DNA of 64,000 nt from Escherichia phage vB_Eco_J-01: sequence record PQ438393.1. The stretch is one strand, 5' to 3'. Shown here piece by piece: positions 40,854-42,787 of the stretch (positions within the stretch are counted from its first letter, which is position 1; the number at the start of each line of letters is the position of its first letter). The translations under genes were made by a program, and so were the position numbers. The notes beneath the pieces are model-generated. The model made no database searches and had not been told where the DNA came from. It saw only the letters and a list, made by a program, of their open reading frames with translations.

Positions 40854-41606
40854 ATGGGAAATAAAACCGCAAAGGCTCGTCGTCAATCAGCAGCCAATGA
40901 TGACAAACGTGCCAGTCGTTATGCGGCTAAAGCAGTAGGAAATGATGATTACCGTCTTGATGAATTTACCCCTGTTGGGAATCAAGAAGCTATTGTAAGA
41001 AGCATGGTTTGGAATGATTTAACCATTGTTAATGCCCCAGCAGGAACAGGAAAAACGACAACAGCATTGTGGAAAGCATTGCAAATGCTTAAAGCTGGTG
41101 ATTTCAGAAAGTTGATTTTCCTTAAAAACCCGACAGAAGTAGGTGATGATCAAATTGGTTTCTTATCTGGAGATAAGACTGATAAACTAGCAGCACACTA
41201 CGAATCAACTAAAAGAATTTTCCAACAGTTTATGACTGCAAATAAATTGGAAAACGATATTGCAAGTGGCAAAATTGAACTTAATATTCCAAACTATGCA
41301 CTAGGTGCTACGTGGGATAACAGCATTATTCTTATTGATGAAGTTCAACTTATGTCACCAAATACAGTAAAACTTCTCCTTGAGCGAGCAGGTCTTAACA
41401 CACGTATTGTCATTATGGGTGATGTTAATCAAACATATGCAATTAAACGAAGAGCTAACGGGTTAGGTGATTTGTTAGATCGTGTTGTTCCTATTAATGA
41501 AGAAGGAGAAAGGGAAGCTATTGTGGATTTTATTGGTTATGTTGAAATGACAACTGCTGATAACCAACGTTCCCGTTTGTCTCAGTTCATCACGGAAGTA
41601 TATTAA
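40854..41606 (+). CDS. phoH: PhoH-like ATPase
   Basis: Walker A NAPAGTGKTTTAL and PhoH-like architecture. Confidence 0.8.
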   Translation: MGNKTAKARRQSAANDDKRASRYAAKAVGNDDYRLDEFTPVGNQEAIVRSMVWNDLTIVNAPAGTGKTTTALWKALQMLKAGDFRKLIFLKNPTEVGDDQIGFLSGDKTDKLAAHYESTKRIFQQFMTANKLENDIASGKIELNIPNYALGATWDNSIILIDEVQLMSPNTVKLLLERAGLNTRIVIMGDVNQTYAIKRRANGLGDLLDRVVPINEEGEREAIVDFIGYVEMTTADNQRSRLSQFITEVY

Positions 41607-41642
41607 TAATTACAAGGCAAGGATGCCTGTTATGGAGGTTAA

Positions 41643-42137
41643 ATGACGCTAATTGAGATTGATCGCAATGGTATTGATGAATGCTATCAAGCTGGCTTAG
41701 TTAAGCCGAATGAGTTTAGACAGATTTATATTGACAAGATTGAAAAAGAAATATCTCTTCGTTTAGAGAACATGACAACTTTGCAAAAAGTTCAGATGTT
41801 TTTTAGTTGGTTAAAAGGCGAGGATTGGCTAACTAAATATTACCAGGAATTATCTGATAGTCAAGAAGGCTTGTTTGAGTGTATAATAAATGTAGCTGGG
41901 TCTAATTCAGAATTACTCCTGATTGATGAAGAAGATTCTAAACTTCTTTTTCTTAGCAGTATTTTTCACAAGAAATCTATGTTAGTAAGAAATTGCAGTG
42001 ATTTACTAAATCATCCACTAACAAGAACTAATAAAATTCTTGTGGATAAAGAAACACTAAGAGCTATTGATTACCTCCGTAAATATGTAAGCGGTGGTAA
42101 AGCAGTCCTTAAAACACTACAGGAGGAAGTACAATGA
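41643..42137 (+). CDS. hypothetical protein
   Basis: 164-aa track ORF between phoH and the HslV-like gene. Confidence 0.5.
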   Translation: MTLIEIDRNGIDECYQAGLVKPNEFRQIYIDKIEKEISLRLENMTTLQKVQMFFSWLKGEDWLTKYYQELSDSQEGLFECIINVAGSNSELLLIDEEDSKLLFLSSIFHKKSMLVRNCSDLLNHPLTRTNKILVDKETLRAIDYLRKYVSGGKAVLKTLQEEVQ

Positions 42138-42787
42138 CAACAATTATTGCAACACGTAACAAAATTCTGTCTGACGGTAAAGTAACAGTAGGTAGTCGTG
42201 TAGACACTTTAAATTTCAAGAAAGTGCGTAAAATTGGGGACTACCTTGTTGGTGGTGCAGGACGTCTGTCTTCTATCCTGACTTTCTTTTCTTGGTTCGA
42301 ACAAAACTTACAATGCCAAGCAGCACAAGAGACAATCCCAGGTTTGGTGATCCAGTCCGATCCTGATAAAGAAGATGAAGAGTTTGTGGCATTGGTTGTT
42401 CACCCAGACGGTAAAATTTATATGCACGAGGGTAATAATCCAACGCGAGCATATCCTTTAACTGAAGATTACTATGCTGTTGGTAGTGGGGCAGATTTTG
42501 CTTTAGCAGCTTTAGACGCTGGGGCAACCCCAGAAGAAGCAATGGAAGTTGCAAAACTACGAGATGCTTTTTCAGGGGGTGAAACTTTTGTTGAAGAGAT
42601 CGAAGAACAACTGGAGCTAACAGCGGAAGATATTCTGAACTTCAGCAAGGAGCAACTAATTAGTATGCTGTTGACTGGTGATCCTGATAGTGATGAAGCT
42701 GAAAGTATTTTAGCAGAAATGAAAGAATCACAAGAAAAAGTATTGACAGTCTCTGAAAAACTTGATAAAGTATCCTCTGATAATTAA
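42134..42787 (+). CDS. HslV/proteasome beta-like Ntn-hydrolase peptidase
   Basis: N-terminal MTTIIATRN (Thr directly after Met), GGAG and GSGADFALAAL segments resembling HslV; acidic C-terminal extension. Confidence 0.55.
   Translation: MTTIIATRNKILSDGKVTVGSRVDTLNFKKVRKIGDYLVGGAGRLSSILTFFSWFEQNLQCQAAQETIPGLVIQSDPDKEDEEFVALVVHPDGKIYMHEGNNPTRAYPLTEDYYAVGSGADFALAALDAGATPEEAMEVAKLRDAFSGGETFVEEIEEQLELTAEDILNFSKEQLISMLLTGDPDSDEAESILAEMKESQEKVLTVSEKLDKVSSDN

Follow-up and report, generated by a model that had tools for sequence, protein, structure and literature searches.

The 217-aa protein encoded by Escherichia phage vB_Eco_J-01, a phi92-type E. coli phage, is probably a compact PPH-type peptidase with an N-terminal threonine nucleophile, that is, a phage-specific member of the proteasome-beta/HslV superfamily and not an HslV orthologue. 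Its gene sits in an early/metabolic block outside the structural module of the window, by which we mean the whole 64-kb stretch of DNA analyzed here. A sequence-only reading of this DNA had described a trio of PhoH-like, 164-aa and HslV-like reading frames, the last with the protein start MTTIIATRN. All of these are present, and the neighbors of the peptidase gene are indeed a PhoH-like ATPase and the 164-aa ORF. The locus is laid out as follows:

40821..40838, + strand: GC-rich hairpin GGGGC-GAAA-GCCCC then TTTT, between the lysozyme and PhoH genes (read from the sequence)
40854..41606, + strand: PhoH-like P-loop NTPase, 250 aa, Phi92_gp060 orthologue (Pfam PF02562, E 1.4e-35)
41643..42137, + strand: conserved all-alpha protein, 164 aa, Phi92_gp059 orthologue
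42121..42126, + strand: ribosome-binding site of the peptidase gene, AGGAGG, 7 nt 5' of its start (read from the sequence)
42134..42787, + strand: HslV/proteasome-superfamily Ntn peptidase-like protein, 217 aa, Phi92_gp058 orthologue, PPH-type core plus C-terminal extension
42799..42818, + strand: hairpin CCCCC-TCAA-GGGGG then TTTATT, directly 3' of the peptidase stop (read from the sequence)
42829..43257, + strand: 142-aa protein, Phi92_gp057 orthologue, downstream neighbor of the peptidase gene (phrog_15078)

The ATG at 42134 is the earliest possible start of the peptidase ORF. Its AGGAGG sits within the 3' end of the 164-aa ORF, whose stop overlaps the peptidase start in the ATGA read at 42134-42137. 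Both hairpins were also picked up by a terminator-type scan of the sequence; since the promoter/terminator scan gave site counts no higher than the shuffled expectation, only these directly seen hairpins are reported. The downstream 142-aa protein is weakly kept across related loci, where it is 27-51% identical or absent. A prohead protease candidate is found elsewhere in the window, after the portal gene at 4547-5038, and since that candidate exists the 217-aa peptidase was ruled out for this role.

Fold and active site of the 217-aa protein

The resemblance of the 217-aa protein to HslV is far above chance. PHROG 1040 ('peptidase HslV family') matches residues 1-212 with an E-value of 8e-62, phmmer finds Thermotoga HslV (1M4Y) at E 5e-8, and the protein is 98.6-100% identical to GenBank genes labeled 'peptidase HslV family' or 'putative 20S proteasome'. 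The HslV-like segments to which the earlier reading had pointed hold up in the alignment, where AVGSGADFALAALDAGA pairs with HslV AIGSGGPYAQAAA and the N-terminal MTTI with MTTI. The Pfam Proteasome model (PF00227) reaches a marginal 25.1 bits, against a gathering cut-off of 22.4, over residues 11-63 only. An AF2 model of the monomer has a pLDDT of 82, with core blocks at 84-98. Compared with the PDB by Foldseek, it retrieves 798 chains at E<=1e-3; HslV structures 6KUI, 6KR1 and 1M4Y come first (E ~1e-9), followed by BPH and 20S beta subunits, all with a probability of 1.00 and E-values of 1e-9 to 1e-7. Among viral models 47 clusters were matched, including a 131-aa CcrColossus protein at a TM-score of 0.85. 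The predicted structure is that of an alpha-beta-beta-alpha Ntn fold of the proteasome-beta/HslV superfamily. A stand-alone phage Ntn peptidase-like protein, as originally proposed, is thus borne out by the model, the Foldseek matches and the Thr directly after Met, in a context retained across the family.

The active-site positions are the following:

42137..42139, + strand: Thr2, predicted N-terminal nucleophile; Thr in 215/216 relatives; aligns with E. coli HslV Thr1
42173..42175, + strand: Asp14, counterpart of HslV/20S beta Asp17; Asp in 218/219; aligns with E. coli HslV D17
42221..42223, + strand: Lys30, counterpart of the catalytic Lys33; Lys in 220/221; aligns with HslV K33
42251..42262, + strand: G40-G41-A42-G43, glycine-rich turn with the oxyanion-hole glycine; HslV G45/G48 region
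42482..42490, + strand: G117-S118-G119 motif; counterpart of HslV Ser124 and 20S Ser129
42560..42580, + strand: R143-D144-A-F-S147-G148-G149, 20S-type 'RD166xxS169GG' (family alignment, hhalign)

The protein starts Met-Thr-Thr, without a propeptide, and Met precedes Thr2 in 211 of these 216 relatives. The ORF offers no earlier start codon, and the placement of the catalytic Thr immediately after the initiator Met stands as first read. By the known rule for a small second residue, host methionine aminopeptidase would cleave off this Met. Asp14 also aligns to D17 of a 20S beta5 sequence. In the glycine-rich turn, G43 is found in all 223 members compared and G40 in 179 of 224, aligning to HslV G48 and G45, respectively. 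The next motif is equally well kept (G117 in 224/224, G119 in 223/224), with Ser in 206 and Thr in 16 of 224 members at position 118. D144 (215/224), Ser or Thr at 147 (217/224), G148 (200/224) and G149 (198/224) define the last motif. Where the phage protein has RDAFSGG, E. coli HslV has ICIYTNH; hhalign pairs RDAFSGG with RDAYSGG of a 20S beta5 sequence at a probability of 94%. Judged from these alignments, the full predicted proteasome catalytic set is near-absolutely conserved in about 220 relatives.

Phage-type core, appendages and the host HslU question

A proteasome-like gene in a phage is in itself not new. GenBank and PHROGs already annotate this gene as such, and Fuchs, Alva and Lupas reported proteasome homologues of phages in 2021, as the clade PPH (PMC8665760); among the papers citing that survey we found none on phage homologues. 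PPH and RPC are recognized by their lack of the apical helix H2 (PMC8665760). Assigned by the published description of PPH, the 217-aa protein fits this clade, with an extension. Like PPH, it is a group-I homologue nearest HslV/BPH that comes from tailed phages and has neither H2, nor a propeptide, nor an AAA+ partner. Unlike PPH, which has ~140 residues, it consists of a ~155-aa core with a 16-residue acidic loop and a 62-aa extension, and is therefore most aptly called a PPH-type core plus extension. RPC, known here from its published description, likewise lacks H2 and has extra C-terminal sequence, but is reported only from proteobacterial genomes, whereas the family of the 217-aa protein is found on phage genomes. 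Its members occur on 166 phage records, every match with context lies on a phage contig, and a pattern-seeded scan of 185,579 representative bacterial and archaeal genomes returned no relatives. A deep search revealed a large tier of 135-150-aa relatives with the same motifs, the nearest shorter relatives having 135-160 aa. Core bit scores have a median of 57 bits for the short proteins (<=160 aa), compared with 29 bits for E. coli HslV.

Comparison with solved systems places the protein close to HslV and apart from it. HslV (ClpQ; E. coli b3932; PDB 1E94, 1G3I, 1M4Y) is the best solved match in both structure and sequence, with a shared MTTI- N-terminus, at which Met removal exposes Thr1 in HslV, and with D17, K33 and the GSG serine kept. 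However, identity is ~28% over part of the length; the phage protein has the RDxxSGG motif and the C-terminal extension but no H2, and hslU is found neither near the gene nor in this phage type. The NCBIfam HslV equivalogs (TIGR03692 / NF003964) give two scores, 34 bits for a cut-off of 137 and 31.6 bits for one of 157.75. Given these scores, the missing H2 and a core nearer to the short phage-type homologues, the protein is not an HslV orthologue: of the label 'HslV/proteasome-like peptidase' given at first sight, superfamily membership and active site were upheld and orthology was not. BPH (Thiobacillus denitrificans; PDB 5OVS; PMC5777263), a stand-alone double ring for which no unfoldase is known and whose pore loop is acidic (PMC5777263), is also among the top structural matches. 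Yet it is bacterial, has both apical helices and a far longer pore loop, and is ~19% identical. Catalytic 20S beta subunits of the beta5 type share the fold, the Thr1/Asp17/Lys33/Ser129/Asp166/Ser169 set and the RD-x-x-SGG motif; the phage protein differs from them in lacking a propeptide, an alpha-subunit partner, H2 and S12/H5, at 16-21% identity. In the profile and structure comparisons as a whole, HslV, BPH and 20S beta are thus the top matches, and the HslV equivalog score falls far short.

Three further elements distinguish the protein:

42335..42382, + strand: acidic loop, residues 68-83, IPGLVIQSDPDKEDEE, replacing HslV apical helix H2 (AF2 model)
42599..42784, + strand: acidic C-terminal extension, residues 156-217, 62 aa, 17 D/E versus 5 K/R, net charge -12
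42617-42679, + strand: proximal amphipathic motif of the extension, residues 162-182, LTAEDILNFSKEQLISMLLTG, conserved

In the AF2 model a single helix (45-67) runs into coil (68-83) and then into a strand (84-89), and HslV is ~10 residues longer at the H2 region. The loop carries a net charge of -5, and its D81 and E82 are kept in the family. The acidic C-terminal tail recognized from the sequence is confirmed by its composition. Its proximal motif is retained in relatives from Vibrio, Shewanella and Aeromonas phages at 33-36% identity, and the distal extension, with a pLDDT of 44-68, varies in sequence and length and is the least conserved part of the protein. A Pfam search of residues 156-217 returned no domain. 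Longer homologues of 260-379 aa bear extra C-terminal domains; HeH/SAP-like motifs considered in these were dropped after zero Pfam matches. An internal 'EDILNFS' was considered as a tethered mimic of the HslU tail EDLSRFIL and rejected, being neither family-conserved nor C-terminal.

The earlier reading had raised the possibility that the phage protein recruits host HslU. Here, a host HslU hexamer would dock onto HslV-like phage rings, unfold and feed substrates, and so create a re-targeted ATP-dependent protease. HslV is the nearest solved relative of the peptidase, the E. coli host encodes HslU, and there is no phage-encoded ATPase of its own: the absence of an HslU-like partner that had been remarked upon was corroborated by tblastn, in which E. 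coli HslU gave zero matches to the 64-kb window even at E<=10. The other Walker-A ORFs of the window were discarded as unfoldases, one being of the AAA_33 kinase type and the other without a Pfam match. Among Escherichia-named phage records 4 match HslU, compared with 106 that carry the peptidase. Localization data on Erwinia phage RAY gp116 are not applicable, because gp116 is an HslU and not an HslV homologue. In E. coli HslV, the pocket for the HslU C-terminal tail includes F54, F57, Q114 and A79/K80 (PMC6429459). The hydrophobic face of helix H1 is kept in the phage protein, where F52 aligns with F57, but F54 is replaced by leucine (L49), the Q114 region aligns ambiguously, and A79 and K80 fall in the helix that is absent. 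With H2 absent, part of the HslU-tail pocket and the pore region are missing. In addition, the HslV equivalog models are missed by ~100 bits, and PPH-type genes occur across phages of several host phyla with AAA+ linkage unreported (PMC8665760). The 20S-type D166/S169 motif, which HslV lacks, hints that activation follows another logic. It is therefore improbable that the peptidase recruits host HslU.

We also give low credence to a non-degradative Ntn enzyme that would act on one defined phage or host target, by a single specific cleavage, by transpeptidation or ligation (as archaeal connectase does) or as an amidase. The proteasome superfamily includes connectase and many Ntn amidohydrolases (PMC8665760), and connectase shows that such active-site residues can also serve a ligase. 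Without H2 the protein may be unable to form a closed chamber, and a conserved docking-type motif at the C-terminus together with a dedicated small partner would suit a specific substrate. However, connectase is without both H1 and H2 and has an S3-S4 insertion that is absent from the phage protein, the nearest solved relatives are all bulk peptidases, and the sequence holds no pointer to a substrate.

Neighboring genes

The 164-aa protein is an orphan with a confidently predicted all-alpha fold. Between its ORF and the peptidase gene lie -4 to +9 nt in 20/20 loci, an arrangement that marks the two as translationally coupled as far as the sequence can tell. This coupling is confined to one phage lineage, where it persists to 41% identity, and distant homologues are without the ORF. 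Going by gene arrangement, the 164-aa protein is the best partner candidate for the peptidase. Several relationships were explored for it. In Aeromonas phage 4L372XY HslV-family genes stand in tandem, and this, together with a shared 'FFSW' string, gave rise to the idea of a degenerate alpha-like proteasome paralogue, to which hhalign assigned a probability of 3%. Comparisons with the ORFs that precede the peptidase gene in Vibrio qdvp001 and Aeromonas 4L372XY, with the extra C-terminal domains of the longer homologues, and with the downstream 142-aa ORF were all negative. PADLOC found no defense or anti-defense match for the peptidase, the 164-aa or the 142-aa ORF.

The PhoH, 164-aa and peptidase genes are kept together in all relatives to 41% identity, and PhoH precedes the peptidase in every relative, even at 33-36% identity. 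It is not found beside the PPH-type genes of Caulobacter, Rhizobium, Kagunavirus and Erwinia phages. In the relatives the whole surrounding stretch (NrdAB, thioredoxin, lysozyme, PhoH, ..., invertase, DprA) keeps one gene order, so that the adjacency of PhoH reads as common descent, that is, as the inherited gene order of the backbone shared by one phage superlineage. The trio noted initially therefore survives as a set conserved to 41% identity and not as one functional unit, only the 164-aa ORF being tightly coupled. In phage VEcB a natural 1.1-kb deletion knocks out the PhoH, 164-aa and peptidase genes together, which makes all three accessory; the peptidase gene is dispensable for propagation.

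That the trio forms one machine, with PhoH as NTPase motor, the 164-aa protein as adaptor and the peptidase as proteolytic chamber, strikes us as very improbable. The order PhoH-(x)-peptidase is indeed shared between phi92 and Vibrio, Shewanella and Aeromonas phages whose peptidases are only 33-36% identical, and the three genes are lost in that single deletion, but the collinear surrounding block accounts for the adjacency, and PPH-type genes of unrelated phages have no PhoH neighbor. In distant phages 0-6 unrelated ORFs separate PhoH from the peptidase, and a hairpin plus a 36-nt gap lie between PhoH and the coupled 164-aa/peptidase pair. Moreover, the protein is a PhoH/SF1-like P-loop NTPase, whose only relative in the PDB is PhoH 3B85, and not an AAA+ unfoldase. 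Hardly any weight can be given to a scaffold or decoy without relevant catalysis, whose ring surface or acidic tail would titrate a host factor such as HslU or a different chaperone: the strongly acidic tail (net -12) and the dispensability seen in VEcB would suit it, but seven catalytic positions are near-absolutely kept over ~220 diverged sequences, which is unexpected for a non-enzyme, and conservation is lowest in the distal acidic tail.

Proposed function and significance

As a PPH-type N-terminal-threonine peptidase, the protein would lose Met1 to host methionine aminopeptidase, and the freed Thr would act as the nucleophile. By analogy to HslV and BPH, the subunits may assemble into a ring or double ring, although without H2 some of the surface from which HslV forms its ring and gate is gone, so that ring assembly is not assured. 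Such a particle could do without an unfoldase of its own, as has been suggested for BPH, Anbu and PPH, and during infection would act on proteins or peptides that are unfolded or specifically recruited to it. The C-terminal motif, the co-translated 164-aa protein, or both might contribute to regulation, assembly or substrate selection. More speculatively, and with little confidence, the 164-aa protein and the PPH-type peptidase may together constitute a phage-private, unfoldase-independent mini-proteasome, in which the motif/tail or the helical partner would serve as receptor or gate and host stress regulators or defense proteins would be targeted early.

The value of these results as a discovery is small, in that HslV-family/20S annotation exists and the absence of HslU has already been remarked upon in the literature. 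Hundreds of phages nevertheless carry PPH-type genes, in a size range between siphoviruses of 44 kb and giants of 300 kb, and to our knowledge no virus-encoded proteasome homologue has been biochemically characterized. The phi92-type version offers a practical entry point, as it infects E. coli K-12 and its candidate partner gene is tightly coupled to it, and the natural deletion variant VEcB (MT932211.1) forms a near-isogenic pair with OZ035773.1. If the mini-proteasome proposal were true, the pair would be the first proteasome-like degradation system from a virus for which a target is defined.

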